Assembly: GCA_000995965.1 (NCBI GenBank)
Contig: LBYD01000001.1
Coordinates: forward strand, 279,040-343,039
Reading direction: 5' to 3'
DNA: 64,000 nt
From: Candidatus Moranbacteria bacterium GW2011_GWC2_40_12
GTDB taxonomy: Bacteria > Patescibacteriota > Minisyncoccia > Moranbacterales > UBA11712
The notes under the pieces were generated by a model. It was not told the DNA's origin. It made no database searches and saw nothing but the letters and a program-made list of their open reading frames with translations. The translations under genes and the position numbers were made by a program. This document shows, one piece after another, positions 4,046 through 61,191 of this stretch; within the stretch, counting starts at the first letter, position 1; the number at the start of each line of letters is the position of its first letter.

Positions 4046-4051
4046 AAGAAT

Positions 4052-5155
4052 TCAAATTATTGTGCCTCCCCCCAAAACTTCTCCATTTTTATAAAAAACC
4101 GCTGACTGGCCCGCTGTCACCGCCCGAAATGGCCTTTTAGTCTCGACAAGAAGCCTTCCCGACTTGCCTGGTATTATTTTAGCAGATATTCTCGTTGAAT
4201 GGTAGCGAATTTGAACGTCAGCCCGGAACGGCGATTTTTTCTTTTCATTTGTCCAATTGACTTTGCTCACCCAAAATTTCTCTTTGTGCAGCTTTTTCGA
4301 GTCGTTTGTGACAATCAGTTCATTTTTTCGAATATTTTTTCCGATTACCCAATACGGTCCGGTTCCTCCGATTTCGATCCCTTTTCGCTGTCCGATCGTA
4401 AAAATGGGCAAACCTCTATGTCTTCCCAAAACTTTTCCCGCTTCATCAATGATGTTTCCGGTTTCTGATTCAATATTCTTTGAAAAATATTTCATGGCGT
4501 CATTATCCGGCATAAAGCAGATATCTTGCGACTCATTCGTGGCAACCGGCAATTTCATTTCTTTCGCCATTTTTTTTACTTCTGATTTTTTATATCCTCC
4601 CAGCGGAAAAATAATTTTCGACAGATCTTTTTGAGCCAATTTATATAGAAAATACGATTGGTCTTTTGTTTTGTCTTCAGCTTCAAAAAGTCCGGCTTTG
4701 AAAAATTTCGGCGGCTTGCTGGCTGAAAGGCAAAGGCCGGACTTTGATTCACCGGCTAAAATACGCCCGCTTATTTTGGCGTAATGACCGGTTGCCGCAT
4801 AATCCGCCTTTTCTTTCTTCATCAAATCGAAAAGCAGGCAAAATTTCATCTCCTTGTTGCATACGACGCAGGGATTGGGGGTCTGGCCTTTTTTGTACGC
4901 GTTGAGAAAATAATCAATCACCCGCTTTTTGAATTCTTTCCGCGCGTCAATTATTTTCAGCGGAATTCCCAATTTATTCGCGATTTTTTTCACTTGGAAA
5001 CTTAGTTTCCAAGTTTGTTTGGTGAAGACAAAATAAGCACCAATAACTTCGTATCCCTGCTTTTTGAGCAGCGCCGCCGCCACTGCCGAATCCACCCCGC
5101 CGGAAAGGGCGACAACGATTTTTTTATGATTATCTTTTGGTCGCTTGTTCATCAT
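4052..5155 (-). CDS. mnmA: tRNA-specific 2-thiouridylase MnmA
   Basis: PP-loop SGGVDSAVAA, catalytic NPCVVCNKEMKF; contains an in-frame palindromic-element insertion (TWKLSFQV). Confidence 0.9.
   Translation of the reverse strand: MMNKRPKDNHKKIVVALSGGVDSAVAAALLKKQGYEVIGAYFVFTKQTWKLSFQVKKIANKLGIPLKIIDARKEFKKRVIDYFLNAYKKGQTPNPCVVCNKEMKFCLLFDLMKKEKADYAATGHYAKISGRILAGESKSGLCLSASKPPKFFKAGLFEAEDKTKDQSYFLYKLAQKDLSKIIFPLGGYKKSEVKKMAKEMKLPVATNESQDICFMPDNDAMKYFSKNIESETGNIIDEAGKVLGRHRGLPIFTIGQRKGIEIGGTGPYWVIGKNIRKNELIVTNDSKKLHKEKFWVSKVNWTNEKKKSPFRADVQIRYHSTRISAKIIPGKSGRLLVETKRPFRAVTAGQSAVFYKNGEVLGGGTII
4982..5004. repeat. PE-A: 23-nt perfect palindrome ACTTGGAAACT-T/A-AGTTTCCAAGT, copy inserted in-frame in mnmA
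   Basis: identical to the palindromes flanking and inside the RAYT-like gene at 14337-14996. Confidence 0.8.
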
Positions 5156-6030: not shown

Positions 6031-7917
6031 TCAGCGGCTGCTTAGGCTCTCTTTAATCAGGCTCCGCACTTCCGCAAGATTCACCTGCTTTCTTGGCCGC
6101 TCGTTTCTTTCCCGCTTGAATTGCCGTGGCGGCATTTTTGACGCTTCACGAAGAGTAACAGTTCTTTGCGGCTGAAATCTTTCATTTCGCGGCTCTCTTT
6201 GATCGTTTGCGGCTCGGCTGCCTTGCGACTGCTGGATCTTGGCCTGCTGGCGCTGATAATCCTTGAGGCAGTCTTTGCAAAAAGTGGGCCGGGATCCGTC
6301 CGGCTTGAAGGGTACTTCTATGTCTATGTCGCAGCTCGCGCACTTGGCCGCATACATTTGCCTGCCGGAGTCGTTTCGCCCGCCTGCTTCGACTCGCGAA
6401 GCATTTCGGGCAGGTGAAGCTTTGCCGGCGGGACGATTGACGCCCGCAACGACCGCTTTTTGATTTTCGCCGGAACTTTTGATTCGTCTTGCGTCTTCCG
6501 CTTTGGCCGGCGGTTTTATTTTTTTCCCGACGATGTCATTTTTCATGTTTTTAGGGATTGAATTTGTTTGCTTGTCTTTCGTCCTTAGCTCTCTGATGAT
6601 ATTTTTCTGGCTGGCCAAATCTTTTTCAGTTACCATCCCGCTCCAGCGGGCGATTTTGTCTTCAACAATTTCCCGATCCGTCCCATACCGCTCCCGCGTG
6701 ATGCGAATCACTTTTTCTTCATTTTCCAGCGTTTTCGAAAGGTCAAACGGCGGAAGTGTCGAGGCTGAAAAAGCGTTTCCGGCTATTCCGTCAATCATCA
6801 GCTTTATATAAATTTGCCGGTTTGGAAGATTCACGAGATCCTGGATGACAAATACCGGCTCAAATTCCTTCTCCAGGAATTCGGCATCTTCTGCCCCGAC
6901 CCTGAAAACGCAAAGTGTCCCGACGTTCCCAAAAACCGCGTCTCGAACCCTCGTTGACGTATCCGTCACCAGCTGGCCGATATACTGATGGGCAATAATC
7001 AAATTAAGGTGATATTTTCTCGCTTCAGACAGAATATTGGCAAACGAATCAGTCGCGAAATTTTGGAATTCATCAACATACAAATAGAAATCTTTTCGCT
7101 CTTCTTCCGGAACATCCACCCGGGCCATGGCGGCCAGCTGAATTTTGGTGATCATCATCGCCCCGAGGAGAGCGCTGTTATCTTCGCCTATCCGGCCTTT
7201 GGAAAGGTTCATGACGAGAACTTTTCCCTGGTCCATCAGCTCGCGGATGTTGAAAGCCGATTTTGTTTGCCCGACAATGTTCCGGATAAGGGCGCTCGAA
7301 AGGAATTGACCGACTTTGTTTTGAATCGGCGAAATCACTTCTTGAAGGACCCGCTCATTCCATTGGGTGAATTCATCCACCCAGAACGACCTGACAACGG
7401 GATCGGAAATTTTTTCGACAACGCGCGCCCGGTAATGTTTATCAACCAGAATGCGGGTAACTCCCAAGAGTGTGCTGCCCGGATATTCCAGAAGTGCCAA
7501 AATAGCATTGCGAAGAATGTATTCGAGTCTTGGCCCCCATGAATCCGCCCAAATTTTTTTGAACACTCCGACCAGTCCCGATGCAATGAGATGCCGGTAT
7601 TCCGTGTCAACTTTTTCCATCACGTTGAATGCGATGGGATATTCCTGATCGGCCGGATTGAAATAAATGATGTCGTTTATCCGGTTGGAGGGAATCGATT
7701 TGATGACGGTTTCGGCAAACTCGCCGTGCGGATCAACGATTGCCACGCCCCGGCCGCTGTGGATATCCTGTATTGCCATATTTTGGATCATGGTGGTTTT
7801 TCCGGTTCCGGTTTTCCCGACAACATAAAAGTGCCGGCGCCGATCGTCGGTTTTGATTCCAAAAACCCTGTCCTGCCCGCGGAAATTTGTTTTAGCGAAT
7901 GTTGTGATCTCGTTCAT
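6031..7917 (-). CDS. P-loop ATPase of the T4SS DNA-binding-domain / VirD4-TraD-TraG-like (FtsK-HerA superfamily) with basic C-terminal tail and Cys4 zinc ribbon
   Basis: Walker A VVGKTGTGKTT after HFYV; DEFQNF Walker-B-like; C-terminal CASCD...CKDC ribbon and R/K-rich tail. Confidence 0.7.
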   Translation of the reverse strand: MNEITTFAKTNFRGQDRVFGIKTDDRRRHFYVVGKTGTGKTTMIQNMAIQDIHSGRGVAIVDPHGEFAETVIKSIPSNRINDIIYFNPADQEYPIAFNVMEKVDTEYRHLIASGLVGVFKKIWADSWGPRLEYILRNAILALLEYPGSTLLGVTRILVDKHYRARVVEKISDPVVRSFWVDEFTQWNERVLQEVISPIQNKVGQFLSSALIRNIVGQTKSAFNIRELMDQGKVLVMNLSKGRIGEDNSALLGAMMITKIQLAAMARVDVPEEERKDFYLYVDEFQNFATDSFANILSEARKYHLNLIIAHQYIGQLVTDTSTRVRDAVFGNVGTLCVFRVGAEDAEFLEKEFEPVFVIQDLVNLPNRQIYIKLMIDGIAGNAFSASTLPPFDLSKTLENEEKVIRITRERYGTDREIVEDKIARWSGMVTEKDLASQKNIIRELRTKDKQTNSIPKNMKNDIVGKKIKPPAKAEDARRIKSSGENQKAVVAGVNRPAGKASPARNASRVEAGGRNDSGRQMYAAKCASCDIDIEVPFKPDGSRPTFCKDCLKDYQRQQAKIQQSQGSRAANDQREPRNERFQPQRTVTLREASKMPPRQFKRERNERPRKQVNLAEVRSLIKESLSSR

Positions 7918-7950: not shown

Positions 7951-9222
7951 TTATTCGACGGGTAAATTCAATGGCGCGCCGCTTTTCTTGGCTTCAATGT
8001 GGGCAATCGCCGGAGACATGGCTGACATGTCCGGCAAATGCCAGATTGTCGCCAGTTCTTCCGTATTCAGATACATATTGGGCCCGTCATTGTCTCGAGT
8101 CAGATACCGGCGGAAAATTTTTCTCTGAGCCCATTTCATGCGATAAGGCCTGAACCAATAGTTGGCGAATGTTTTTGTTTCATTATCCTTGGCAAAGGAA
8201 TTCAAGTTGGGATCGCCAAACTGATGGGTAAATCCGTCCGGCGCCTGATAAAAAACCTTCTTGAAGCTTTCCCGCGGCGCAATATAAAGCAGCCTCAATT
8301 TCGTCCTAAAGGCCTTTTTGTTGAGGCTCTCCTCAACCGCCTGAAGGACATCCTTTTCCACCGGAGTCAGCCGAAACTGCAAAGGCTGTTCCTCTTTTTT
8401 TTCAGCTTTTTTTTCCTCGATCGGCCCAAAAATATTTTTTATTGAAGAGGCCAAAATGTCGAGAACCTCCGAAAAGAAATACACGATAGCCCATGATTCT
8501 TTTTTTATTTCCCGGTTGGCCAGTTTTGCCACCACTTTTTTGACCTCCGGCGCCCACTCTTTATCCTTGACGGGCCTTACGAGTATCTGGAGCCAAATTT
8601 GGTGGCCTGGCGGCAGAGTCGTGATCATGTCCGCCAGGGGCGCCAAAGGCTCGATCATCCCCTTGGTTACCTCTTCCTGGAATTTGTGATACGTCCGGAT
8701 AGGAAAAGCATCGTCTTTCGCCAGCTTATAATCCGTTCCCCACAAATTCCACTCCGGATTGGGAGCATTGGAAGGCACCGAATTGACATAGTCTTCCGCT
8801 TCCTCGATTTCGGCTTCCGGATACTGCGAATATACCGCCGATTCGATCAAATTGCGATAGCGGGATTCGGTCCGGATATAAAAATGCATTTCGCCATTCA
8901 CTCCCTGGATTTCGAAAGCAAAAATCGACTGGAAAAATCTCCCTTGAAAATATTTGTCGAAATAGTTGGGCGTTGACCAAATCCCGTGCAGGACAATAAA
9001 AATCTGCTCCATTGTTCTGGGGCTTCGCTCGATATTTCGGGGAGGCTTGATTTCAAGAAGCGTCCATTTGATGGTTGAAGAATAGTCCCTCCAGAGCTGC
9101 CGCCAATAAAGCTCGAAAAAAGTGAAATACAGCGCCACGGGAAAAACAAACCACCAGGTGGCTGAAACGGCCATTTTTATCTGAAGATAATATTCGATTA
9201 TGGGCTGAAAAATGCTTCCCAT
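7951..9222 (-). CDS. hypothetical N-terminally membrane-anchored protein, probable partner of the VirD4-like ATPase
   Basis: 423-aa ORF with two N-terminal TM helices, 34-nt gap to the ATPase gene downstream, same strand. Confidence 0.5.
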   Translation of the reverse strand: MGSIFQPIIEYYLQIKMAVSATWWFVFPVALYFTFFELYWRQLWRDYSSTIKWTLLEIKPPRNIERSPRTMEQIFIVLHGIWSTPNYFDKYFQGRFFQSIFAFEIQGVNGEMHFYIRTESRYRNLIESAVYSQYPEAEIEEAEDYVNSVPSNAPNPEWNLWGTDYKLAKDDAFPIRTYHKFQEEVTKGMIEPLAPLADMITTLPPGHQIWLQILVRPVKDKEWAPEVKKVVAKLANREIKKESWAIVYFFSEVLDILASSIKNIFGPIEEKKAEKKEEQPLQFRLTPVEKDVLQAVEESLNKKAFRTKLRLLYIAPRESFKKVFYQAPDGFTHQFGDPNLNSFAKDNETKTFANYWFRPYRMKWAQRKIFRRYLTRDNDGPNMYLNTEELATIWHLPDMSAMSPAIAHIEAKKSGAPLNLPVE

Positions 9223-9340: not shown

Positions 9341-10453
9341 TTATCTTAATTTGTATCCGTCCGCTTTTTTTTCAAAGACTTTCCTGTTGGCCAGATTGAC
9401 GGCGATAGTCGCCCTTTTTACTTTTCTTTTCCCAAGAACTTCCTCATAAAGTTTTTCTCTCTTCAGAAAACCGCCAGCCGAATTCAAAAGATTGACGATG
9501 ACATCCTTCACTGTTCCCTCTTCGAAGCCCCACTCGCGCAAGGCATAGGTTCCCCGGCCAACCAGGACGAATCTTTTGTCGCGGATCAGTTCATTGTGAA
9601 CAGTTTGAGGATGGACTTTTTTTCCGCTCAACTTCAATTCTTCAATCAGTTGGCTTATTTCGCGGAAATGGAGCGGTTTTCCTTTCTTCATCAGAACCAG
9701 TGTGGCTTTTTCGCGCACTCCTCGCGGCCGGATGAGCGGCCACCGGGCTTTTCCCCAGTCTCCGAAAACATTTTGTCCGAACTTTTTGGAAATTTCGAGA
9801 AAACTCAGTATATGCTCCGGCTTCATTTCGGAATATTTTTGGGAAAACTCGCTATGATCCAGTTTCTTGAGAACTTCCTCGAGGGTCAATATTTTTTTCC
9901 CCGTGTCGAAGATCATCTCCAATTCATCAACTGCTGCCTTGAAATATTTTTTGTCGAAATCTGGGTGAATCCATGTATCTTCCATTTCCCGATTTGATCT
10001 CGCTTTTTTGATCCCGGTCATGAGAAAAATTACTTCAAGCAATTTGGCTTCCTGCAGTGAAAGTTTTTCATTTCCCGTGTATCTCAAGAAAACGCCGCTC
10101 GCCAGTTTTTCTGCTTTGATGATTCCCCCGTTTTCTTTGATTATATCGTTTACGCAAGCTGAAAGGTTATCGAGGTTACTGACTTTTTCCGTTTTTTTCA
10201 GGGCCTTCACGGCATCTCCTTCGATTTGCCTCACTCTTTCCCTTGTGATATTCAGATTTTTTCCGATAGCCTCGAGTGTTTTTGGCTGTCCGTTTCCAAT
10301 CCCGAAACGGCTGGAAAGAACCAGTTTCTGCTTGGCGCTAAGACTGTCCAAAAGGCTTTCAACGACAGACTTCAAATCTGCTGTTTTTACTGGGATTTTT
10401 TGGGATAAATCCGAATTTTCCCTTGAATTTACCATATTTCTTGAAGCAAACAT
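9341..10453 (-). CDS. sigma-70 region-4 domain protein with C-terminal HARE-HTH domain (atypical sigma-like regulator)
   Basis: LVLSSRFGIG...TLEAIGKNLNITRERVRQIEGDAVKALKK (region 4.2) near N-terminus; C-terminus LHFREISQLIEE...RFVLVGRGTYALREWG (HARE-HTH); annotated ATG at 10501 overlaps the -10 box so start moved to 10453. Confidence 0.6.
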   Translation of the reverse strand: MFASRNMVNSRENSDLSQKIPVKTADLKSVVESLLDSLSAKQKLVLSSRFGIGNGQPKTLEAIGKNLNITRERVRQIEGDAVKALKKTEKVSNLDNLSACVNDIIKENGGIIKAEKLASGVFLRYTGNEKLSLQEAKLLEVIFLMTGIKKARSNREMEDTWIHPDFDKKYFKAAVDELEMIFDTGKKILTLEEVLKKLDHSEFSQKYSEMKPEHILSFLEISKKFGQNVFGDWGKARWPLIRPRGVREKATLVLMKKGKPLHFREISQLIEELKLSGKKVHPQTVHNELIRDKRFVLVGRGTYALREWGFEEGTVKDVIVNLLNSAGGFLKREKLYEEVLGKRKVKRATIAVNLANRKVFEKKADGYKLR

Positions 10454-10500
10454 TATTGTTTTGCTATTGATTATTATAGCGCGATTAATCTCGGTATGCA

Positions 10501-13827: not shown

Positions 13828-14313
13828 TTATTTCTTAAGATAATTTAGCAAAAATCTATTTGCTTCCTTGAAAGCATTGCGTGAATTCTTGTATGTAATA
13901 CGCTTGAGGGATTCTTTGTATTCCAGCCAGGAAAAGTTGACGTGTTCAAATGACAATCTCACCTCTTTTTCTTCTGTTTTTGCTAAATAGGCTGTAACTA
14001 TTTTAAAAATGTTTATTCCTCTATTTGACGCCTTTCGTTCTTTTTTCTCATTACCTTTTGCGCGGTAAAAATATTTATACCAAGTATAAAATCCCGGAAT
14101 TATTTCAAATTTTGTAATCCCTGTTTCTTCTTTGACTTCACGGCGCAATGCATCTTCCCATGTTTCTCCTTTTTCAATATGTCCTTTGGGGAAATCCCAA
14201 TGACCCTGAAAGCCATCGCTTTTCGGATGCTGGATTAGTAAATACAATATTTTATTTTTTTCCCTCCGGAACACCACTGCTCCGACTGATTTTTCAAATG
14301 GCATACTCTCCAC
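13828..14313 (-). CDS. NUDIX hydrolase
   Basis: Nudix box GHIEKGETWEDALRREVKEETGI. Confidence 0.85.
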   Translation of the reverse strand: MESMPFEKSVGAVVFRREKNKILYLLIQHPKSDGFQGHWDFPKGHIEKGETWEDALRREVKEETGITKFEIIPGFYTWYKYFYRAKGNEKKERKASNRGINIFKIVTAYLAKTEEKEVRLSFEHVNFSWLEYKESLKRITYKNSRNAFKEANRFLLNYLKK

Positions 14314-14334
14314 TTGGAAACTTAGTTTCCAAGT
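14312..14334. repeat. PE-A palindrome copy at the 3' flank of RAYT-1
   Basis: ACTTGGAAACTTAGTTTCCAAGT, ends 3 nt before the RAYT-1 stop. Confidence 0.85.
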
Positions 14335-14336
14335 CG

Positions 14337-14996
14337 TTATTCGATTATTAATTTTTCCATCTCCTTTTTGTCTTTTATAGAAACCAGCGATTCTTCCGCA
14401 AATTTTCGATAATCTTCCCCATTTTTGAAATCATCCAAAATCACGCGTTTTTCTCCGCAAAACGTCTTTTCTGAAAAATTATCCGTATATTCCCTCCAAC
14501 TTGAAATCGACTTGGAAACTAAGTTTCCAAGTGAATGGACACGGTCATTGAGATTCACGTAGGCGCTTAAGTGCAACAGATAGCTGTTTGTTTTTATATG
14601 GACTGCTTTGAATGTTCCCTGGAAAAGAGAACCAGAGCGCTCGTGCCTCTTGTTGAAATATTTTGTATAACCTATTCCGAGACGGTGCATGAATTTCTCA
14701 ATGCCCTGCTCGGCTGTCTGTTTGAGAATGAAATGATAGTGGTTAGGATTCAGGCAAAAACACACGAAACCGACCAATTTCTTTTTGGATTTGTTCTTTT
14801 CTTTTCTGTCGCGAAAAAAATTTTCATATATGCTTCCGATCGGATCAAGCGTATTGAATTCATCCATACTCTGAAGAAATCTCCGCATATCCAATTGATC
14901 ACTGAAAATTTCCCGCTTGTCCACTCCGCGATTGAAAATGTGGTAATATTCGCCTTCAGCCAATTGTATTTTTCTCATAGCTGGATTATAGCACAA
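14337..14996 (-). CDS. IS200/IS605-family Y1 (HuH) transposase, REP-associated tyrosine transposase-like (RAYT-1)
   Basis: EYYHIFNRG..., HuH motif NHYHFIL, conserved Y in YLLHLSAYVNLN, SGSLFQGTFK; flanked by PE-A palindromes on both sides and contains one in-frame. Confidence 0.8.
   Translation of the reverse strand: MCYNPAMRKIQLAEGEYYHIFNRGVDKREIFSDQLDMRRFLQSMDEFNTLDPIGSIYENFFRDRKEKNKSKKKLVGFVCFCLNPNHYHFILKQTAEQGIEKFMHRLGIGYTKYFNKRHERSGSLFQGTFKAVHIKTNSYLLHLSAYVNLNDRVHSLGNLVSKSISSWREYTDNFSEKTFCGEKRVILDDFKNGEDYRKFAEESLVSIKDKKEMEKLIIE
14510..14532. repeat. PE-A palindrome copy inside RAYT-1 coding sequence (in-frame, encodes LGNLVSKS)
   Basis: ACTTGGAAACTAAGTTTCCAAGT. Confidence 0.85.
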
Positions 14997-15004
14997 AACA
15001 ATCC

Positions 15005-15027
15005 ACTTGGAAACTAAGTTTCCAAGT
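15005..15027. repeat. PE-A palindrome copy at the 5' flank of RAYT-1
   Basis: ACTTGGAAACTAAGTTTCCAAGT, 9 nt upstream of the RAYT-1 start. Confidence 0.85.
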
Positions 15028-23850: not shown

Positions 23851-23857
23851 AGCCCTT

Positions 23858-23878
23858 CGTAGGTGTCGGACACCTACG
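23858..23878. repeat. PE-B: 21-nt perfect palindrome CGTAGGTGTC-G/C-GACACCTACG at 3' flank of RAYT-2
   Basis: distinct from PE-A; located between P-type ATPase start and RAYT-2 stop. Confidence 0.85.
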
Positions 23879-23880
23879 AT

Positions 23881-24528
23881 TTATTCTAGTAAATATTTCT
23901 CCCTTTCCTTTTTCTCTTTCATATACAAAGAATTTTCTTTTATAAATTCTCGATATTCATTCTTATTTTTAAATTCATTAAGAATAACACCTGTGTCACA
24001 AATCCCCCCGTTTCTTTTCCCAGTATAATCTAAAAAACTGGAATATGGCCAGTCAAAATCGTCACCGTATCCATGAATAAAATAGTTTTTGTTAACATAG
24101 GCTGATAAATAAAGAAGATGTGCGTTTGTCCTTATACGGATCGATTTAAATTTCCCCTGAAACAATACTCCGGATCTTTTGTAATGATAGTTGAAATAAT
24201 TTGTATAACCGCCTCCGAGCCTTTTCATATATTCAGAAATTCCATGTTCTGTTGATTGTTTTAAGATCAAGTGAAAATGATTCGGATTAAGACAATAACA
24301 TATGATTTCAACTAATTTTTCCATTCGTAGGTGTCCGACACCTACGTCTTGCTTTCTTTCTTGCTGACTGTGCCTATACAAGCTATGGATAGGATCAATT
24401 TGGTTAAATTCTTTCATGGACGTTAAAAATCGATTATAGTCTCTGTTGGATAAAAAAACTTTCCGTTTTTCAACGCCACGGTTATAAATGTGGTAATATT
24501 CATTGACATCTAGGGGTTGTTTTCTCAT
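23881..24528 (-). CDS. IS200/IS605-family Y1 transposase, RAYT-like (RAYT-2), paralog of 14337-14996
   Basis: EYYHIYNRG, NHFHLIL (HuH), YLLYLSAYVNKN, SGVLFQGKFK; own palindrome PE-B on both flanks and in-frame (VGVGHLR). Confidence 0.8.
   Translation of the reverse strand: MRKQPLDVNEYYHIYNRGVEKRKVFLSNRDYNRFLTSMKEFNQIDPIHSLYRHSQQERKQDVGVGHLRMEKLVEIICYCLNPNHFHLILKQSTEHGISEYMKRLGGGYTNYFNYHYKRSGVLFQGKFKSIRIRTNAHLLYLSAYVNKNYFIHGYGDDFDWPYSSFLDYTGKRNGGICDTGVILNEFKNKNEYREFIKENSLYMKEKKEREKYLLE
24326..24346. repeat. PE-B palindrome copy inside RAYT-2 coding sequence (in-frame)
   Basis: CGTAGGTGTCCGACACCTACG. Confidence 0.85.
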
Positions 24529-24534
24529 AAACCT

Positions 24535-24552
24535 TAGGTGTCGAACACCTAC
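24535..24552. repeat. degenerate PE-B copy at the 5' flank of RAYT-2
   Basis: TAGGTGTCGAACACCTAC (one mismatch in loop). Confidence 0.7.
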
Positions 24553-24580
24553 AAAATCATTTTACCACAAAACCGGCCGC

Positions 24581-24610
24581 TTGACGCCCCCCCCAAAAAA
24601 AAGAGATAAT
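24581..24610 (+). promoter_or_regulatory. sigma-70-like promoter TTGACG-N18-GATAAT whose spacer is a C8A8 homopolymer tract
   Basis: gcTTGACGccccccccaaaaaaaagaGATAATgg about 35 nt upstream of the PilX-like gene. Confidence 0.4.
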
Positions 24611-24642
24611 GGATATAGCTTAACCTTCTAAAACAAAAACAT

Positions 24643-25209
24643 ATGCGCGAAAACAAAAAAGGTTCCGCCCTTCTTCTCACCACCATTCTTCTTTTCGTGG
24701 TGCTTTCTATGGTAATCAGTCTTACCTATATAACCGTAATGGAGCAGAAGATGAGCGGGAAAACCAAAAGCTCCGTCGGTTCCTTCTTCAACGCCGATTC
24801 TGGAGTGGAATGGGCGCTCAACAGAATTGCCAATGCAGACAGCGATATCACCATCGCCACAGCTTTTGGCGACTCGGATATAGCTGATGGCGTCACTTGT
24901 CCCTTTCCGGGTTGCAACCTCTATTTTCTCGATGAAAATGGAAAAGTGATCTCTGACGGCAATACCTTCCGTGTTTCCGACATCAAAGCAGTCCGCTCCG
25001 TCGGGACCAACGAGACCGGTGATCCCACCCAGCGGGCTATTGAAGCGGCGGTGGCGGAGACGGGCATCGGAAAATATCAAATATCTTGCTCATTATCTGG
25101 TGCTCTAACTATGTGCTGCAGAGTGGATACAGAAACGGGATCGACCGAATGCAAGATGACTCCCGATCACCCGAATCCTTGGATTACATTTGGCAATAAG
25201 CCTTGGTAA
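24643..25209 (+). CDS. PilX-N-domain minor pilin / pseudopilin-like protein
   Basis: N-terminus KKGSALLLTTILLFVVLSMVISLTYITVMEQKMSGKTK matches PilX_N (hydrophobic helix followed by EERMAGN-like motif); Cys-rich globular C-terminal part. Confidence 0.6.
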   Translation: MRENKKGSALLLTTILLFVVLSMVISLTYITVMEQKMSGKTKSSVGSFFNADSGVEWALNRIANADSDITIATAFGDSDIADGVTCPFPGCNLYFLDENGKVISDGNTFRVSDIKAVRSVGTNETGDPTQRAIEAAVAETGIGKYQISCSLSGALTMCCRVDTETGSTECKMTPDHPNPWITFGNKPW

Positions 25210-25248
25210 TTAGAGCTTCGCTAAAGTTGAACCTTAGCGAGAATAGAA

Positions 25249-25276
25249 AGAGCGGATATTTCCGCTCTTTTTCTTT
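25249..25276 (+). terminator. intrinsic terminator downstream of the PilX-like gene
   Basis: AGAGCGGATATTTCCGCTCT + TTTTCTTTATTTT. Confidence 0.5.
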
Positions 25277-25642
25277 ATTTTATAACATAACTCGACCCAA
25301 CATTAACCATTCCTAAAGTTGAACTTTAGGAAGAGAGGATATCTCGTGGATATTGTCAGTTATTGATTGATGTCAAATCACTATCATACGATAGTAAAAC
25401 AAAAAGCTAAAAAAGGAATCGAAAAATTTTAGAGTTTTGCTAAGGTTCGACCTTAGCAAAGGCAGGAATTGGAAATTTTTTTATATTTCCTTCCTTCCCT
25501 CAATTGCGCCGGTGAGTAACCATTCCTAAAGTTTAACTTAAGGAAGTCAAAAAGAACGAGTCCACAGCTCGTTCTTTGAATATTATCCAAAAATTTGTTA
25601 TCCTAAGGCTTCCTAACATCCGATGTTAGAAAATAGAAAACT

Positions 25643-25674
25643 CACCGCTTTCGAGCGGTGGGTTTTTCTTTTGC
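25643..25674. terminator. bidirectional intrinsic terminator (serves htrA on minus strand)
   Basis: CACCGCTTTCGAGCGGTG flanked by A-rich (5') and T-rich (3') runs. Confidence 0.45.
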
Positions 25675-25747
25675 GGATTCTTTTGTAACCCTTACCAACA
25701 TTGAATGTTGGTAAGATGTTGGTAAGAAAAAAAGCGGTTTAGTTTTT

Positions 25748-25768
25748 GTAGGTGTCCGACACACCTAT
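25748..25768. repeat. degenerate PE-B copy just 3' of htrA
   Basis: GTAGGTGTCCGACACACCTAT. Confidence 0.6.
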
Positions 25769-25773
25769 GAGTT

Positions 25774-27045
25774 TCATTTCCTCTCCTCCAGTTTCACTTG
25801 AACTGTTTTTTCCTCGCCTTTGTGCCAGATTTTCAGGTTGATTGTGTCGCCGACGTTCGATTTCGCGATTTGGTCGCTCAATAGATTTTTTTCATCAATC
25901 TTCACGCCGTTTATTTCAAGAATAATGTCATTTTCCGTGAGTCCCGCTTTGTCCGCCGGACTTCCCGGAACAACCGCGAAGTCAGTCACTTTTTGCCCGC
26001 GAAGCACCAGCGCGCCATAGCCATATGGCAAATTATTTGCTTTCTTTATTTCTTCCGTTATTGGTATGTATCGCACGCCAATGTAAGGCTGGACTATTTT
26101 TCCTTTCGATTTCACGCTTTCGATGCCCTTTTTCACGATATTTATGGGAAGCGCAAAACCGATGTTTTCAGCCCCTTGCGCCATTGCAACATTCACGCCT
26201 ATCACCTGTCCGCTGATATTGAGAAGAGGCCCGCCGGAATTCCCCGGATTGATGGCCGCGTCTGTCTGAATCACCTCGCTCAAAGTTTCCGCCTGCCCGA
26301 ATCCATCTCCGGCCGTCACATTGCGTTTGAGGCCGGAAATGATTCCTTTGCTGACCGTGTTTCGAAATTCCCCGAGCGAATTTCCGATCGCAATGACCGT
26401 CTGCCCAATTTTCAAATTGCCTGAATCGGCCAATTCCAAAACCGGCAAATTGTTTCCGGCTTCGATCTTGAGAATGGCAACGTCGTTCACCGGATCGATT
26501 GCCATCACCTTAGCCGCGTGTTTTTTTTCGTCATTTGTCATCACGGTATATTCCGCCTCCTGGTCGGAAACAACATGCTTATTGGTCACAATCAGCCCAT
26601 CTTTTGAAACGATAAATCCCGAACCTCCGCCAATTTCCTGTTTTTCCGTCTCTCCCTGATTTTGCTGTTGCCTCTGGCTCGATCCGAAAGGATTGAAAAA
26701 AGGATCAAAACCGAAGGGATCGGAAAAAAAGTCCTGCATTTTTGGAATGTCTTTGGAAACAATGATACTCACCACAGCCGGCGAAGCTTTTTCGACTGAC
26801 GCCGTCACGGCCGATTCTTCATCGGGAAAATTGATGGTGCTCCCCGCACTGCCAGAATTCTTTTGCCCGACCTGATTTTGATTTTTCTTCAAAAAATCAA
26901 GGCTGAATTTTCCCTGCCCCAGATTCCCAGCCATAAAACCAAAAAGAGCCCCGAAAAATGAGGAAATGAGAAATGTGATAACAAAAAAACCGATCAGAAT
27001 TTTTTTATAAGTTTTTACCAATTCTTTGTTTTCTCGATTGAGCAT
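25774..27045 (-). CDS. htrA: HtrA/DegP-family periplasmic serine protease with PDZ domain
   Basis: GNSGGPLLN catalytic Ser motif, His/Asp triad context, C-terminal PDZ, N-terminal TM anchor. Confidence 0.9.
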   Translation of the reverse strand: MLNRENKELVKTYKKILIGFFVITFLISSFFGALFGFMAGNLGQGKFSLDFLKKNQNQVGQKNSGSAGSTINFPDEESAVTASVEKASPAVVSIIVSKDIPKMQDFFSDPFGFDPFFNPFGSSQRQQQNQGETEKQEIGGGSGFIVSKDGLIVTNKHVVSDQEAEYTVMTNDEKKHAAKVMAIDPVNDVAILKIEAGNNLPVLELADSGNLKIGQTVIAIGNSLGEFRNTVSKGIISGLKRNVTAGDGFGQAETLSEVIQTDAAINPGNSGGPLLNISGQVIGVNVAMAQGAENIGFALPINIVKKGIESVKSKGKIVQPYIGVRYIPITEEIKKANNLPYGYGALVLRGQKVTDFAVVPGSPADKAGLTENDIILEINGVKIDEKNLLSDQIAKSNVGDTINLKIWHKGEEKTVQVKLEERK

Positions 27046-32707: not shown

Positions 32708-33670
32708 TTAAATTTTGAATTTTATTCTCTGTAGAATGAAATATGCAGCAGAAAAGATTGCGATAAAAACCATCTTTCCGATCGCGTTTAAATTCAGTGC
32801 CGCAAGCCCAACAATCATGCCAAAAACACATACCAATACCACGATCTGCTTTTCGCCTAGTCCCAATTTTAGCAGTTTGTGATGAAGATGTCGACTGTCC
32901 CCGCCTGAAAATATGGATCCGCCGGCATGATGCCTTTCCCATATCACACTCACCAGATCCAAAACTGGTATAAGTGTTACCATGAAAACTGTCGCTATTT
33001 TTGCTCCCGCAAATATGGACAGGCTGGCAAGGAGAAACCCAAAAAACCAGGCGCCAGATGTCCCGGCTATGATTTTTGCCGGATGCCAGTTGAAAACCAA
33101 GAAAGCCAAAACTGCCCCAGCAGCGGTTGCGCACAAAATTGCCGCCGCCGGCTGATTGACATGCGGCAAGAGGCTCAAAAAAAATATCTCGGCCAGTGCC
33201 ACGAATGTCACGCTTCCCGAAAGACCGTCAATTCCGTCAAGCCAATTCAATGCATTAATAAAGAGCAAAAAGTATAACGTGTAAATAAAAATGTATACGG
33301 CAGGATTTTCGAGATTTATGGTTCCACCGAAAGGATTTGCCGTATATCCGCTCCGCACACCAAATAATATCGCTGTGATCGCTATTATAACTTGAAATGC
33401 CAACTGCCATTTCCAATTTAGATTTTTTATATCATCCCACAACCCAAAAATCAGAATCAACAGTCCACCGGTAATAATCCCCGCAATCGGTTTCGTGATG
33501 ACCAAGTCTTTATCGTATAGTACGAATAAAATGAAAATTACAATCACAACTAAACCTCCCAACCTCTTTTTAAGGTTCGGCCTTAAAAATGGCGTCCGCA
33601 GCAAAAAAAATATCGCGATGATCGATAATAAAAAAGAAAATAGAAATGGGAGAAGAAATTTTGCCGCCAC
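32708..33670 (-). CDS. glycosyltransferase family 4 polyprenyl-phosphate hexose-1-phosphate transferase (WecA/MraY superfamily)
   Basis: IFGLWDDIKNL, NALNWLDGIDGL, 10 or more TM. Confidence 0.85.
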   Translation of the reverse strand: MAAKFLLPFLFSFLLSIIAIFFLLRTPFLRPNLKKRLGGLVVIVIFILFVLYDKDLVITKPIAGIITGGLLILIFGLWDDIKNLNWKWQLAFQVIIAITAILFGVRSGYTANPFGGTINLENPAVYIFIYTLYFLLFINALNWLDGIDGLSGSVTFVALAEIFFLSLLPHVNQPAAAILCATAAGAVLAFLVFNWHPAKIIAGTSGAWFFGFLLASLSIFAGAKIATVFMVTLIPVLDLVSVIWERHHAGGSIFSGGDSRHLHHKLLKLGLGEKQIVVLVCVFGMIVGLAALNLNAIGKMVFIAIFSAAYFILQRIKFKI

Positions 33671-45665: not shown

Positions 45666-47417
45666 TCACCAGCTTCCTCCGCCTCCGCCACCGAATCCAC
45701 CGCCACCTCCCCCTCCGGAAAAACCGGAACCGCCGCCGGATGCTGAAGATGGCTGGCTGGCCATGGCCGTCCCGGCTGTATTCGAAAAATCATTTATCAG
45801 GCTTGATAAAATTATAGCATTGAAAGCCCGCCCAGACGAATCCTCGTACCAGTCCGGCTGCTGGTTGTATATTCCTTCAAATTGCTTCGCCCATTCTTTT
45901 TCAACCCCAAGAACCATCGCGTAGGGTAGAAATCTTTCGAACATCTGGGGATTTTTCTCGGGCGCGTTATGAAATTTCAACCGATCCGTTTCCGTGACAG
46001 AGAGAAAATCCTTGAATCCCAGAATATTTTCCTTGATCCCGGCGCCTTTTTTGGTCACCGCCGGCATCAGCCAGCCAAAGATTGCTATGATTATCGTCGA
46101 GACAATCCCGCTAAACACTCCCCATCCTCCCTGAAGATTGCCGAAAATCACTGTGAGGAATACTCCGCCGATTATCCCGCCAATAAGCCAACCAGCTCTC
46201 GTACTATTCGGATTTGAAACATAATATCCTTTTTCTGTGATGCCCTTATAAAGCTGGTCTTTTACCGCCGCGAGGGTTTTGAAAAATTTGTTTTTGAGAT
46301 CCGATAATTTCTTTTCTTTATCCCCATTGAAGATTCCCTTCATCACTTCTTTTTCAAAATCCCGCGTCGGCTCTTCATCCTTGATTTTAATAAACGTATA
46401 ATCCTTGCTTTTCGTCCCGAAAAATCCCTTTTCCTCCGTGCGTTTGATTTTCAAGAATTTGTTGACAGCCAGATCAATGATTGTCGAAGAAACATCCTTG
46501 TTGTCCGCCGAACCATCCATCATTGTTCCGATTTCCGCCGGCGCGAGCTTGTCCGGCGGTTCATATTGCGCGATGATTGTCCCCCGCCCTTTCGGGTCAC
46601 GGCCCTTTTTGCTCCAAAGGCGATACATAAAGACAAAAACAATGATTGGAAAAAATAGCGTCCAGTTATCGCGCGCGATATCCATAATTTTTACCCTAGA
46701 GCTCAGCTCTAGGGTAATTCCTTTCGGCCAGCCGGCGACAATCGTCATCCCTTCGCCGGGATTGATTATTCCCGTTGATTTATATTCTAAAATATTTCCG
46801 CTCGCGCTTGCCACGCATTCATTCGTGGTCCCAAAAACTCCTTCAAAGCATTTGTACTGCAAATTTTCTATGGCGTTTTCTGGAAGAATAATTTTGAGCG
46901 CTGCGCTCTCAATGGGGACTGGCCATTTGTCGCCCGTGAAGTTCCAATAAAGCTCATCGTGATCTGGGAAAAAATTCACCGCCCGACGAATTACGTAACT
47001 AATTACGTAATTCTTCGTCCCGCTGACGTATTTGTCCGCGTCGCCGATTTGAAATTTTATATTCTCGCCCTCGTAATCCGTGGTGAAATTATACGGCGCG
47101 CCGTTTTCGTCCGTGATTTTCATGTTCGAAACCCGCAAATTATAATTCCCTCCCCGCGCTTTGTATTTCACCGGAATGAACCGGAAAATTCCGTGCTTCT
47201 GCTGGTCGCCAAAGTCATAAGCGATAGTCTCTTTTACATCAATCGTGCTGTCTGAGTTTATTCGGATATCGCCGATGAAATTTATGATTTTCTCGGTGCT
47301 AGGATAACTTTGTGCAAAAGATGAATTTAAGGAAAATATAAGAAATAAGAAACAAGAAATAAGAAAAATTGGAAATTTTTTATTTCTTCTATTTATTTTT
47401 TCTATTTTATTTCTCAT
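45666..47417 (-). CDS. DUF2207-like membrane protein (large extracytoplasmic N-domain, C-terminal TM pair, Gly-rich tail)
   Basis: signal peptide, ...GGGSGFSGGGGGGGFGGGGGGSW tail; carries in-frame PE-C palindrome (TLELSSRV). Confidence 0.65.
   Translation of the reverse strand: MRNKIEKINRRNKKFPIFLISCFLFLIFSLNSSFAQSYPSTEKIINFIGDIRINSDSTIDVKETIAYDFGDQQKHGIFRFIPVKYKARGGNYNLRVSNMKITDENGAPYNFTTDYEGENIKFQIGDADKYVSGTKNYVISYVIRRAVNFFPDHDELYWNFTGDKWPVPIESAALKIILPENAIENLQYKCFEGVFGTTNECVASASGNILEYKSTGIINPGEGMTIVAGWPKGITLELSSRVKIMDIARDNWTLFFPIIVFVFMYRLWSKKGRDPKGRGTIIAQYEPPDKLAPAEIGTMMDGSADNKDVSSTIIDLAVNKFLKIKRTEEKGFFGTKSKDYTFIKIKDEEPTRDFEKEVMKGIFNGDKEKKLSDLKNKFFKTLAAVKDQLYKGITEKGYYVSNPNSTRAGWLIGGIIGGVFLTVIFGNLQGGWGVFSGIVSTIIIAIFGWLMPAVTKKGAGIKENILGFKDFLSVTETDRLKFHNAPEKNPQMFERFLPYAMVLGVEKEWAKQFEGIYNQQPDWYEDSSGRAFNAIILSSLINDFSNTAGTAMASQPSSASGGGSGFSGGGGGGGFGGGGGGSW
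46691..46717. repeat. PE-C: palindrome TTACCCTAGAGCT-C-AGCTCTAGGGTAA in-frame in DUF2207 gene
   Basis: identical 25-nt core also inside secA at 55354-55378. Confidence 0.8.
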
Positions 47418-51074: not shown

Positions 51075-51170
51075 GCATGACTGTAATTGGTAATTTGTAA
51101 TCGGTAATTGGGGATTTTAAAAATATCCTAATTACGAATTACTAATTACGAATTACTAATTACTTAAAAA
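51075..51170. repeat. GTAATT/TACGAAT-type repeat block between nusB stop and rnc start
   Basis: gtaattggtaatttgtaatcggtaattgggg...cctaattacgaattactaattacgaattactaattac. Confidence 0.55.
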
Positions 51171-60465: not shown

Positions 60466-60611
60466 TTCATTAAAAATAAAATCTTCCGCATAGGAAGATA
60501 AGAAATTTATATCTTTCCCTTGCGGGCTAGAGGTAGCACCACGTCTAATAAAAATTAGATTGGTTGCTGGCAGGTCGCAGGGCTAGTTCCCTCGCTGCGC
60601 TCTTGATACTC
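60466..60611 (-). promoter_or_regulatory. SAM-I (S-box) riboswitch with terminator expression platform in the metK leader
   Basis: minus-strand AUCAAGAG-CGCAGCGAGGGAACUAGCCCUGCGACCUGCCAGCAACC...GGUGCUACCUCUAGCCCGCAAGGGAAAGAUA matches SAM-I core; followed by AUCUUCCUAUGCGGAAGAU + UUUAUUUUU just before ATG. Confidence 0.7.
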
Positions 60612-60699
60612 GCCCCGACCTTAATGCGTCGGGGCTTTATTCAATTTTCGAAAGATATATGTATTATAGCGTTTTATATATTCGAGTCAAGGACAATAG

Positions 60700-60772
60700 T
60701 GGACCCGAGGGGATTCGAACCCCTCGCCTCCTCGGTGCAAACGAGGCGCTCTACCAAATGAGCTACGGGCCC
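60700..60772 (-). tRNA. tRNA-Ala (anticodon UGC)
   Basis: cloverleaf folds; G3:U70 identity pair; anticodon loop UUUGCAC. Confidence 0.85.
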
Positions 60773-60789
60773 AAATATACAGTTTATCT

Positions 60790-60860
60790 TGTAAGGCTGT
60801 AAAACAAAAAAGGCGCTCGGACCCTGTCCGCCTTTGGCGGAAAATGAGCTACGGGCCCGC
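60790..60860. repeat. element upstream of tRNA-Ala: conserved hairpin (GGCGCUCGGACCCUGUCCGCC) plus direct copy of the first 20 nt of tRNA-Ala
   Basis: aaaatgagctacgggcccgc at 60841-60860 duplicates tRNA 5' end (60753-60772). Confidence 0.6.
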
Positions 60861-60877
60861 AAACCTAGTTCAAGATG

Positions 60878-60990
60878 CAAAAATCAAAATGAAAAATTTT
60901 GGTGTTCGCTTCGCTCACTTATTTTTAAAAAATAATCATCGCGAAGCGATACATTAATTTTGCACTTTTAATTTTGAATTTTCAATTTAT
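60878..60990. repeat. about 110-bp dispersed repeat with inverted TCGCTTCGC/GCGAAGCGA arms (copy 1)
   Basis: about 85% identical to 63068-63175. Confidence 0.7.
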
Positions 60991-60994
60991 TATG

Positions 60995-61068
60995 TGGGCG
61001 ATCGAGGATTCGAACCTCGGACCTCGTCATTATCAGTGACGCGCTCTAACCAACTGAGCTAATCGCCC
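60995..61068 (-). tRNA. tRNA-Ile (anticodon GAU)
   Basis: cloverleaf folds; anticodon loop CUGAUAA. Confidence 0.85.
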
Positions 61069-61118
61069 AAAGTTTGTTTCTTGCTACGTAGTTTGTTACG
61101 TAACGAGGTAAGTAAATG

Positions 61119-61191
61119 TGGGTCGTGCAGGGATCGAACCTGCGACCATCAGCTTAAAAGGCTGCTGCTCTACCAACTGAGCTAACGACCC
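61119..61191 (-). tRNA. tRNA-Lys (anticodon UUU)
   Basis: cloverleaf folds; anticodon loop CUUUUAA. Confidence 0.85.

Follow-up and report, generated by a model that had tools for sequence, protein, structure and literature searches.

The palindrome array between the PilX and HtrA genes

In a stretch of 64,000 nucleotides from Candidatus Moranbacteria bacterium GW2011_GWC2_40_12 (contig LBYD01000001.1; the whole stretch is called the window below), a convergent (3'-3') intergenic gap of 564 bp, 25210-25773, extends from the stop codon of a pilin-like gene of the PilX_N family to the stop codon of a gene for an HtrA/DegP protease and is filled with short palindromes and terminator hairpins (Table 1). 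On the far side of the PilX gene lies RAYT-2, one of two genes of the window for REP-associated tyrosine transposases (RAYTs), the enzymes that go with repetitive extragenic palindromes (REPs). The array is very probably the relic of one or more RAYT loci with their REPs between a PilX-type pilin gene and HtrA.

No open reading frame (ORF) of 60 amino acids or more exists in the gap, as the original prediction, made from the letters alone, had stated; the longest ORFs reach 45 and 40 amino acids. An independent search for hairpins (stems of 9 pairs or more, with no more than 1 mismatch) recovers the six palindromes of Table 1 as well as three terminator hairpins. The six had been described as equal in length (23 nt) with a common core CTAA-N9-TTAG, but their lengths are 23–25 nt and the core is exact in four of six, the palindrome at 25523 departing from it with TTAAG and the one at 25691 reading CCAA..TTGG. 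Instead of the two intrinsic terminators that had been proposed, there are three terminator-like hairpins and a weak fourth hairpin at 25464-25495. The degenerate copy of an element named PE-B next to HtrA is real, and so is a further member just after rplL, which belongs to the same REP superfamily.

The array is dense, and its palindromes have kept their symmetry. Within 0.56 kb it holds nine of the 49 hairpins of the window. Exact matches to CTAA-N9-TTAG number five in 64 kb compared to 0.44 expected, a count reached in none of 100 shuffles; all are located in the array except the one behind rplL. The palindromes are singlets spaced by some 82–128 nt, no doublets being present, each of them can fold as DNA (-4 to -10 kcal/mol), and the family counts eight copies in the window. 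An alignment of 13 copies, those of the closest relative included, shows covariation of the arms: pairing is kept in 91.6% of the cells, 7 of 11 pairs have changed on both sides, and none of 500 shuffles reaches the covariation score. Palindromy is maintained through compensatory change. A covariance model of these 13 copies (R1), the candidate at 33567-33589 being part of its training set, found no window member beyond the eight training copies, and in relatives it found copies near HtrA only. Six independent assemblies from different samples show the array without a single base difference, so it is not an assembly artefact.

Table 1. Positions of the features discussed (window coordinates unless a locus is named)
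Position	Strand	Feature	Sequence	Remarks
14310-14336, 14510-14532, 15005-15027		RAYT-1 palindromes	ACTTGGAAACTNAGTTTCCAAGT	
14337-14996		RAYT-1		
23857-23879		RAYT-2 palindrome	GTAGGTGTCSGACACCTAC (RAYT-2 type)	after stop codon
23881-24528	-	RAYT-2		Y1_Tnp, 215 aa; on far side of PilX from array
24326-24346		RAYT-2 palindrome		in frame, VGVGHL
24537-24555		RAYT-2 palindrome		before ATG
24643-25209	+	pilin-like gene		Pfam PilX_N
25218-25240		palindrome A1	TCGCTAAAGTTGAACCTTAGCGA	A-type REP; preceded by flank TTAGAGCT (25210-25217)
25245-25275	+	intrinsic terminator 1	GAAAGAGCGGA/TCCGCTCTTTT + T run	12-pair stem; DNA fold -11.0 kcal/mol; hairpin scan 25247-25270; terminator scan 25245-25272 (+)
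25297-25430	+	psiRAYT-3		RAYT pseudogene fragment by homology, codons ~56-100
25310-25332	+	palindrome B1	TTCCTAAAGTTGAACTTTAGGAA	in-frame internal REP of psiRAYT-3; codes FLKLNFRK
25436-25460		palindrome A2	TTTGCTAAGGTTCGACCTTAGCAAA	A-type REP; preceded by TTAGAGT (25429-25435)
25464-25495		weak A/T-rich hairpin	GGAATTGGAAAT...ATTTCCTTCC	DNA fold -5.4 kcal/mol
25517-25609	+	5'-region remnant of RAYT-3 locus	..TTGTTATCCTAAGG	TAACCA flank, B2 (25523-25545), terminator hairpin (25551-25577, also in hairpin scan), spacer, truncated start of ATG-proximal REP (sequence given)
25610-25632		palindrome C	TTCCTAACATCCGATGTTAGAAA	C-type REP
25637-25670	both	bidirectional intrinsic terminator	AAAACTCACCGC...GCGGTGGGTTTTT	DNA fold -12.4 kcal/mol; hairpin scan 25637-25666; terminator scan 25643-25660 (both strands)
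25686-25726		TAACC flank, palindrome B', duplicated right half	CTTACCAACATTGAATGTTGGTAAG (B'), ATGTTGGTAAG (right half)	B' at 25691-25715
25748-25768		degenerate RAYT-2-type REP (PE-B copy)	GTAGGTGTCCGACACACCTAT	5 nt past HtrA stop
25774-27045	-	HtrA/DegP protease gene		
33567-33589		candidate further member	TTTTTAAGGTTCGGCCTTAAAAA	
40538-40562		D-type REP, dispersed	TTTCCTAATCTCCGAGATTAGGAAA	4 nt past rplL stop
60506-60612	-	S-adenosylmethionine (SAM) riboswitch		47.1 bits, gathering threshold 44.4
60700-61191	-	three tRNA genes		
L167 5143-5832		pilin gene near RAYT-3-type locus		
L169 5116-5865		pilin gene near RAYT-3-type locus		
L055 ~9769-10461		pilin gene near RAYT-3-type locus		
L172 780-2317		pilin gene near RAYT-3-type locus		

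A dead RAYT gene inside the array

To which enzyme do these palindromes belong? The two RAYTs of the window score 32.6 and 30.0 bits with Pfam Y1_Tnp (cut-off 23), the HUH motif (NHFH or NHYH) and the tyrosine motif (SAYVN) are invariant in the RAYTs aligned, and JGI labels several homologues RayT. The original prediction had taken the array for the REPs of the adjacent RAYT-2. This assignment has to be given up, as RAYT-2 has a palindrome of its own, with a double foot (GTAG...CTAC), before its ATG, in frame and after its stop codon, and a dead gene of another lineage lies inside the array. RAYT-1 likewise bears a different palindrome at its three positions and is no more suitable as a partner; its internal copy (14510) lies further downstream than in other RAYTs, past the tyrosine motif. 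RAYT-2 is identical to the homologue P0001 and is retained in synteny between HtrA and a P-type ATPase gene in three relatives (loci L008, L010 and L012).

The dead gene was met by tblastn with the window's two RAYTs, which matches the array at 25343-25429 on the plus strand (E 1.4e-4 to RAYT-1). This segment translates to LVDIVSY*LMSNHYHTIVKQKAKKGIEKF, a HUH region with an in-frame stop. The fragment as a whole, psiRAYT-3, reads ..FLKLNFRKRGYLVDIVSY*LMSNHYHTIVKQKAKKGIEKF (FLKLNFRKRGYLVDIVSY*LMSNHYH..), with the TGA at 25364-25366 and the HUH motif at 25379-25387. By blastn, 25297-25430 is 84% identical over 135 nt to an intact gene (L169 6185-6319, E 3e-38) and 78% identical over 121 nt to L167, and its peptide shares 80% amino acid identity with the RAYT of L055. 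As the 40-residue pseudogene peptide matches Pfam Y1_Tnp weakly (E 0.038), it is the nucleotide homology that carries the assignment, and by this homology 25297-25430 is a fragment of a third RAYT lineage. B1 extends the frame as FLKLNFRK, 10 nt 5' of the LVD codons, and its position and frame match the internal copy at +199 of intact RAYT-3 genes. Read by eye from the L169 protein (..NLNHFLK..), the fragment looks as if a single nucleotide had been deleted just before 25310. In the closest relative (L007, HtrA 86% identical) the orthologous gap contains an N-terminal RAYT remnant, MRKTPLVDNEYYHIYNRGV, which is 95% identical to the L055 protein and bracketed by B-type palindromes.

Three homologues tried as representatives of the dead gene's lineage had to be set aside: P0116 and P0095 carry TGGAAGCTAAGCTTCCA-type REPs instead, and for P0090 no flanking palindrome family was seen. 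The true lineage emerged only from a DNA-pattern scan of metagenomes with a single 21-mer of B type, TCCTAAAGTNNAACTTTAGGA, a scan that leaves the abundance of the other variants outside its reach.

Each palindrome variant checked matches a RAYT lineage of its own

The 21-mer occurs in at least 116 metagenome contigs, and only one of the 80 loci compared with the window (L101) is the window's own genome. Four contigs (L055, L069, L105 and L120) encode complete RAYTs of about 221 amino acids that are 38–42% identical to RAYT-1 and RAYT-2. In the first three the palindrome stands before the ATG, after the stop codon and in frame within the ORF, where it reads DFLKLNFRK at +199 as counted from the conserved MRK start; the contig of L120 begins 27 nt before the ATG, with a variant copy there, the exact 21-mer overlaps the stop codon and the protein reads FLKLNFRK. 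A protein search with the L055 RAYT found P0133 (RAYT-3b), which is annotated in Moranbacteria GW2011_GWC1_45_18; its contig series (UX02_C0002) is also that of P0001, the RAYT-2 of the window. At its locus (L167) a PilX_N gene is followed by a truncated REP, a REP, a terminator, a REP, RAYT-3b with an internal REP, a REP and a terminator. The pilin gene that precedes RAYT-3b is a paralogue, within the same species, of the window PilX (86% nucleotide identity over 399 nt in the 5' part, window 24661-25056 and L167 5182-5574). The same PilX-RAYT arrangement is found for P0121 of the L007 species (locus L169).

A fixed layout with three positions recurs at 11 of the 12 intact loci examined: one copy upstream of the ATG, at a distance of a few to about 50 nt, one in frame and one just after the stop codon. 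It is seen at L167, L169, L172 and L173 (in-frame copy at about +200), in the RAYT-2 orthologues of L008, L010 and L012 (internal copies at 8521-8541, 4048-4070 and 7501-7521, respectively) and, with the TGGAAGCTAAGCTTCCA palindrome, at L047 and L048 (internal copies at 1517-1553 and 4180-4216). No REP copy was found after the RAYT stop codon of L171, and no palindrome copies in or around the gene of L049. An in-frame copy of a gene's own palindrome is present in 12 of 13 intact RAYT genes examined, with none found in L049 (P0090). For 11 genes the position is about +170 to +250 nt, within a hypervariable loop that precedes the HUH motif; the in-frame copy covaries with those flanking the gene. 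At RAYT-3 loci an upstream REP is followed by a terminator hairpin, and another REP stands some 25–50 nt ahead of the ATG. The stop-side REP of intact RAYT loci usually has a terminator behind it.

In many of 240 RAYT homologues listed, the loop peptides read as translated palindromes (VGVGHL, GSLAS..EAKLP, GSTSIMEVEP). For the types of the array these peptides are FLKLNFRK (B), FLRLNLS (A) and FLTSDV[RG]K (C), and for the rplL copy (D) FLISEIRK. From the loop peptides of the RAYT-3 homologues the partner RAYT of each variant was predicted, and the DNA then confirmed A, C and D: 1) L171 (P0146) has A-type REPs at two upstream sites and in frame; 2) L172 (P0156) has C-type REPs, TTCCYAACATCSGATGTTRGGAA, before the ATG, in frame (loop FLTSDVGK) and after the stop codon; 3) in L173 (P0163), which comes from the same metagenome-assembled genome (MAG) as L008, both the internal REP and the one on the stop side agree with the core of the rplL copy, TTCCTAATCTCCGAGATTAGGAA, in 23 of 23 positions, the loop reads FLISEIRK and the REP before the ATG shares a 21-nt core with the rplL copy. 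As judged from these sequences, the A, B, C and D variants are discrete REP types, each cognate to a distinct intact RAYT sublineage, and the covariation is best understood as co-diversification of hairpin and enzyme, not as local drift. The proposal of a diversifying reservoir of hairpins has therefore to be abandoned, as the A, B, C and rplL variants match intact RAYT sublineages elsewhere and are not products of local drift. A RAYT may "write" its own hairpin into a surface loop without breaking the frame, in which case the DNA partner would be predicted by the protein sequence alone. The RAYT paralogues compared are about 38–83% identical to one another, and neither near-identical copies, such as an active insertion sequence leaves behind, nor whole-element copies occur among them. 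At least three intact RAYTs, besides dead ones, are present in the species of the window, and RAYT homologues at E ≤ 1e-10 number at least 7,984.

Could the covarying stems work as RNA? Every palindrome can fold, and several are followed by a terminator and form hairpin-plus-terminator units, features that speak for an array of small hairpin RNA genes or for a processed, regulatory multi-hairpin transcript, the first of which the original prediction had offered as its alternative. We regard this as very unlikely. The covariation follows RAYT sublineages whose ORFs encode the same palindromes, which argues for a partner at the DNA level, the units are accounted for by homology to RAYT flanks (see below), and the layout is not conserved in close relatives. 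A promoter scan of 24400-26000 gave a sole sigma-70-like match, at 24581 upstream of PilX, and none inside the array, so that independent small RNA genes are not supported. Rfam 15 returned nothing at the gathering threshold in 24500-25900, where the best match has 26 bits compared to the required 56 and matches at E ≤ 10 are of chance level only.

Probable decay of RAYT loci in the gap

Further parts of the array are homologous to the 5' and 3' flanks of intact RAYT loci of A, B and C type. The segment 25209-25279, comprising A1 and terminator 1, is 89% identical over 71 nt to L171 1822-1890 (E 8e-20), terminator 1 being homologous to the L171 terminator, and by this likeness to the L171 upstream region it can be taken as the 5' region of an A-type RAYT locus. 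The segment 25518-25604 is 88.5% identical over 87 nt to L167 5888-5974 (E 2e-28), just 5' of the intact RAYT-3b; B2 agrees in 23 of 23 positions with the REP at 5893-5915 of L167, and of the T runs beside the terminator hairpin behind it, the one on the minus strand is the better. C together with AATAGAAAA (25608-25640) is 94% identical over 33 nt to L172 2392-2424, the REP upstream of the RAYT P0156. The bidirectional terminator is homologous to the terminator after RAYT-3b (25643-25667 and L167 6716-6740, 92% over 25 nt) and matches a segment of L008 (7299-7335, 87% over 38 nt). The TTAGAGT before A2 matches the PilX stop flank of L169, and 25430-25447 gives a weak match (94% over 18 nt, E 0.007) to this stop flank and its A-type REP (L169 5863-5880), so that a second PilX 3' end could possibly lie here. 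For the hairpin at 25464-25495, possibly a degenerate terminator, no homologue was found. B' has degenerate counterparts beside the pilin gene in L007 and L009, and no cognate RAYT was found for it among the RAYT loci examined.

How could RAYT loci be turned into such an array? Deletion of most of the 660-bp RAYT ORF would leave 23-nt palindromes some 80–130 bp apart, interleaved with terminators, which is the pattern of the gap. Probably the loci decayed by deletions ending at REPs, either through recombination from REP to REP or through excision mediated by a RAYT. Since the ORF fragment sits upstream of the remnant of a 5' region, the gap would be the site where no fewer than two loci, or else a PilX-RAYT module in duplicate, decayed. 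By analogy with what is established for REP/RAYT and IS200/IS605 systems (PMC3479197, PMC6006769, PMC3116915), the hairpins would form on single-stranded DNA and be bound and cut by the cognate HUH/tyrosine RAYT, and REPs would accumulate near the RAYT gene. As the intact RAYT-3b of the same species has 23/23-identical REPs, the copies in the array may still be substrates in trans. Unit content that differs among close relatives may be taken as an indirect sign of mobilisation of the REP hairpin by a RAYT. At present the array probably does no more than supply the converging transcripts of PilX and HtrA with terminators and with hairpins at their 3' ends, terminator 1 probably ending that of PilX.

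Several points weigh against deriving the array from RAYT loci. Binding and cutting of the hairpins by a RAYT is a prediction, and the array family carries neither the GTAG nor the CGTC tag of the classical REP superfamilies. The copy number is low, with two copies outside RAYT loci in the approximately 64 kb of genome seen. The two RAYTs of the window reach 29.5 and 23.2 bits with NCBIfam REP_Tyr_transpos, for which the cut-off is 80, and they have the tyrosine motif Y---N[YS] where class 2 has Y---NP. Moreover, the reconstruction with two modules leans partly on short matches (18–33 nt, E 0.007 to 1e-9) and does not account for B' or the hairpin at 25464-25495, and the metagenome scan was conditioned on one 21-mer.

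Turnover among relatives

The comparison with related genomes that had been proposed as a check was made on syntenic loci, collected from HtrA homologues in GTDB genomes. CTAA-type palindromes are present 3' of HtrA in L007 (about eight units), L008 (two), L009 (one, degenerate) and L026; L008 has A, B and a terminator only and L009 the degenerate B' only. In L013, HtrA is joined directly to the P-type ATPase gene, and PilX, RAYT and array are absent. Every close relative has a short palindrome 5–19 nt past the HtrA stop codon, the sequence of which is specific to the genome: GTAGGTGTC.. in the window and L011, GTAGACGTC.. in L008 and L010, a degenerate CAGACGTC.. in L009 and TTAGGGATC.. in L012. 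In L008, L009, L010, L011 and L012 this REP is of the local RAYT-2 type. Since unit content differs among relatives, the region, as far as these sequences tell, turns over quickly among genomes with HtrA 71–86% identical.

Such turnover bears on the view that the array is a functional cluster akin to bacterial interspersed mosaic elements (BIMEs), kept for a role in the host such as gyrase or integration host factor (IHF) binding, mRNA stabilisation or domain insulation. REPs cluster in known BIMEs, and this counts in its favour, as does the identity of the array in six assemblies of the population. Moreover, a convergent gap is a typical place for REPs (PMC3733652). Nevertheless, we consider a BIME-like array kept for the host unlikely. 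Number, order and type of the units differ between relatives whose HtrA is 80–86% identical and L013 is without the region, and the array contains a RAYT pseudogene and homologies to RAYT flanks. There is no alternating orientation, all TAACC flanks lying on one strand; in addition, we know of no BIME linker motifs for this clade. Of the original description as a BIME-like REP cluster, the part that stands is that the hairpins are of REP type and tied to Y1/RAYT enzymes. The alternation of Y and Z orientation and the linker motifs are missing, and since spacing and terminators of the array are inherited from the flanks of RAYT loci, it is not strictly BIME-like.

Several observations were made on the sides of this comparison. 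The contigs of L007, L009 and L011 end 181–717 nt past the HtrA stop codon; presumably these MAG contigs break 3' of HtrA due to the repeats. The HtrA match of L026, a locus binned as Portnoybacteria, starts only at residue 306, right after a REP (TTCCGAAAGCTCAACTTTCGGAA, 1011-1042), possibly a REP-associated truncation or a chimeric join. In L171, the region 1470-1970, 5' of the intact A-type RAYT, holds an N-terminal RAYT pseudogene remnant (YYHIFNRGVDKREVFTD*), two C-like REPs (TCCTAACATTCAATGTTAGGA), an A-like palindrome (TTCGCTAAAGCTTAGCTTTAGCGGA) and A-type REPs, and clusters of mixed REP types with RAYT debris may be common in the clade.

Dispersed copies and their placement

The B-type palindromes are placed like classical REPs. 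Of 114 sites of the 21-mer, 100 (88%) are extragenic, with 52 in tandem, 11 in convergent and 3 in divergent gaps, and for many the distance to a stop or start codon is 25 nt or less; REPs predominate in unidirectional and convergent gaps (PMC3733652). The many metagenome copies 4–25 nt past a stop codon, the rplL copy at 4 nt and the three canonical terminators of the array speak for a stack of terminators or of stabiliser hairpins in the 3' untranslated regions of the convergent PilX and HtrA genes, in which the palindromes would form a class of non-canonical terminators. This is extremely unlikely, as the palindromes have no T tract, the copies directly before start codons and in frame within RAYT ORFs would be intolerable for a terminator and the palindrome sequence is tied to the RAYT sublineage. 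Termination may well be a secondary, exapted role of REPs rather than a true rival to their origin from RAYT loci.

Other kinds of repeat were considered as well. Clustered regularly interspaced short palindromic repeats (CRISPR) do not fit repeats that are 62–93% alike, irregularly spaced (84–213 nt start to start) and separated by terminators and gene remnants, and the neighbouring genes that were scanned or annotated include neither cas nor integrase genes. With divergent repeats, uneven spacing and no integrase among these neighbours, attC sites of integrons and dif-like sites were likewise rejected. The TAACC(A/C) 5' flank, tried as a guide-like motif, is not conserved over 141 metagenome sites and is coding sequence (..LNH..) in one lineage.

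In some contigs the palindrome forms head-to-head doublets with a 2-nt GC spacer (..TTTAGGA GC TCCTAAAG..), namely in L060 (2484-2527), L065 (1094-1137), L086 (8840-8883) and L128 (1599-1642); these end in ..TTTAGGAA, 1–6 nt before the downstream ATG, and the REP next to the ATG of RAYT-3 genes has TTTAGGAGG or TTTAGGAAAAA as its end. Sequestered in the hairpin, the AGGA(GG) could also act as a Shine-Dalgarno sequence.

Copies of several types also touch other genes. The candidate at 33567-33589 falls in the first 35 codons of a 320-residue ORF for a MraY-like glycosyltransferase, for which GenBank places the start downstream (265 residues); depending on the true start, it would be either a REP of the 5' untranslated region or an in-frame insertion. 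A RAYT-1-type palindrome lies in frame within mnmA (4992-5014), about 140 nt from the start, and L167 has a doublet of the RAYT-1 palindrome inside topA (3043-3084). The palindrome family ACCCTAGAGCTCAGCTCTAGGGT occurs twice in coding regions of the window (55356-55378 and 46691-46717), one copy in the linker of SecA from the Wing/Scaffold domain to the SEC-C motif and the other between two DUF2207 domains. Both look like in-frame intragenic REP insertions, and no cognate RAYT was found for this family.

Comparison with known REP systems

The closest known system is subclass 2.4 of TnpAY1 (Quentin et al., 2018, PMC6006769), in which REPs are inserted in frame inside tnpAREP genes and "double-foot" REPs occur. 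The likeness, judged by gene layout and REP features, comprises 1) a Y1/HUH gene, one per sublineage so far, flanked by its own palindromes, with dispersed extragenic copies; 2) a REP in frame within the gene; 3) a double-foot palindrome in the case of RAYT-2; and 4) the synteny of RAYT-2. In contrast to subclass 2.4, the host belongs to the Patescibacteria (candidate phyla radiation, CPR), the feet in the array are CTAA...TTAG and not GT[AG]G, and the internal REP precedes the HUH motif and does not lie between HuH and Y as in PMC6006769. The motif Y---N[YS] in place of Y---NP and the scores below the NCBIfam equivalog cut-off set the RAYTs apart as well. Compared to the GTAG- and CGTC-tagged REP superfamilies (Di Nocera, 2013), the array has CTAA/TTAG or CCAA/TTGG and the RAYT-2 family GTAG...CTAC.

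With the BIMEs of E. coli the array shares the presence of several REPs in one intergenic region at gene 3' ends. Unlike them, it consists of symmetric palindromes of several cognate types, the sole asymmetric flank (TAACCN or TTAGAG) being on the same strand throughout, interleaved with terminators and a transposase pseudogene in a layout that derives from RAYT flanks. The REPINs of Pseudomonas (Bertels and Rainey, 2011, PMC3116915) are similar in being non-autonomous hairpins tied to a vertically inherited RAYT, and their doublet arrangement is seen for the same palindrome in the four contigs with head-to-head doublets, whereas the palindromes of the array are singlets of apparently low copy number. 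With IS200/IS605 and its hairpin-ended derivatives there is agreement in the Y1 HUH transposase, the subterminal hairpins and presumably a single-strand mechanism; unlike IS200/IS605, the hairpins spread and the gene does not.

REP/RAYT systems are best studied in Proteobacteria and have also been catalogued in Cyanobacteria and Bacteroidetes. In our full-text literature search, no paper turned up that connects RAYT or REP with CPR/Patescibacteria. The kind of system is thus already known, and it is its occurrence in Patescibacteria for which no published description was found. REP/RAYT systems are abundant and diversified in these streamlined genomes, and what seemed an odd array of palindromes becomes interpretable as fossil RAYT loci. 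Using the three-position layout, a RAYT and its REP can in practice be matched by sequence alone, and the layout yields a natural data set for the co-evolution of hairpin and enzyme. For annotation, it matters that such gaps break assemblies and that short palindromes in the ORFs here are in-frame REP insertions and not errors.

Broader than the array itself is the lead given by coexisting RAYT/REP lineages, a hairpin "barcode" encoded in the protein and the recurrent adjacency to pilin genes. RAYT/REP loci appear to recur just 3' of PilX/N_methyl pilin genes and to turn over there by deletion and duplication from REP to REP. Taken together, the proposal would be that the clade hosts coexisting RAYT/REP systems in which loop peptide and REP co-diversify and the activity of which drives plasticity of the minor-pilin locus; we put this forward tentatively, since as a whole it is rather doubtful.

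Pilin genes and further repeats

PilX_N or N_methyl pilin-like genes stand directly 5' of RAYT-3-type genes in five loci examined (Table 1). A PilX-like gene is found in about 12 of some 115 scan contigs other than the window's, several of them with a 21-mer REP shortly past its 3' end. A link between RAYT/REP loci and pilin-gene duplication is possible.

Far from the array, the SAM riboswitch and the three tRNAs are the only Rfam hits at the gathering threshold in the whole window. A/T-rich palindromes or repeats of TACGAAT/ATTACG-type words (e.g. CGACGAATTACGTAACTAATTACGTAATTCTTCG) lie at 46984-47017 and 51137-51161, and repeats of this type recur elsewhere in relatives (L008 3222-3249; L009 3009-3039; L086 ~8790-8825).

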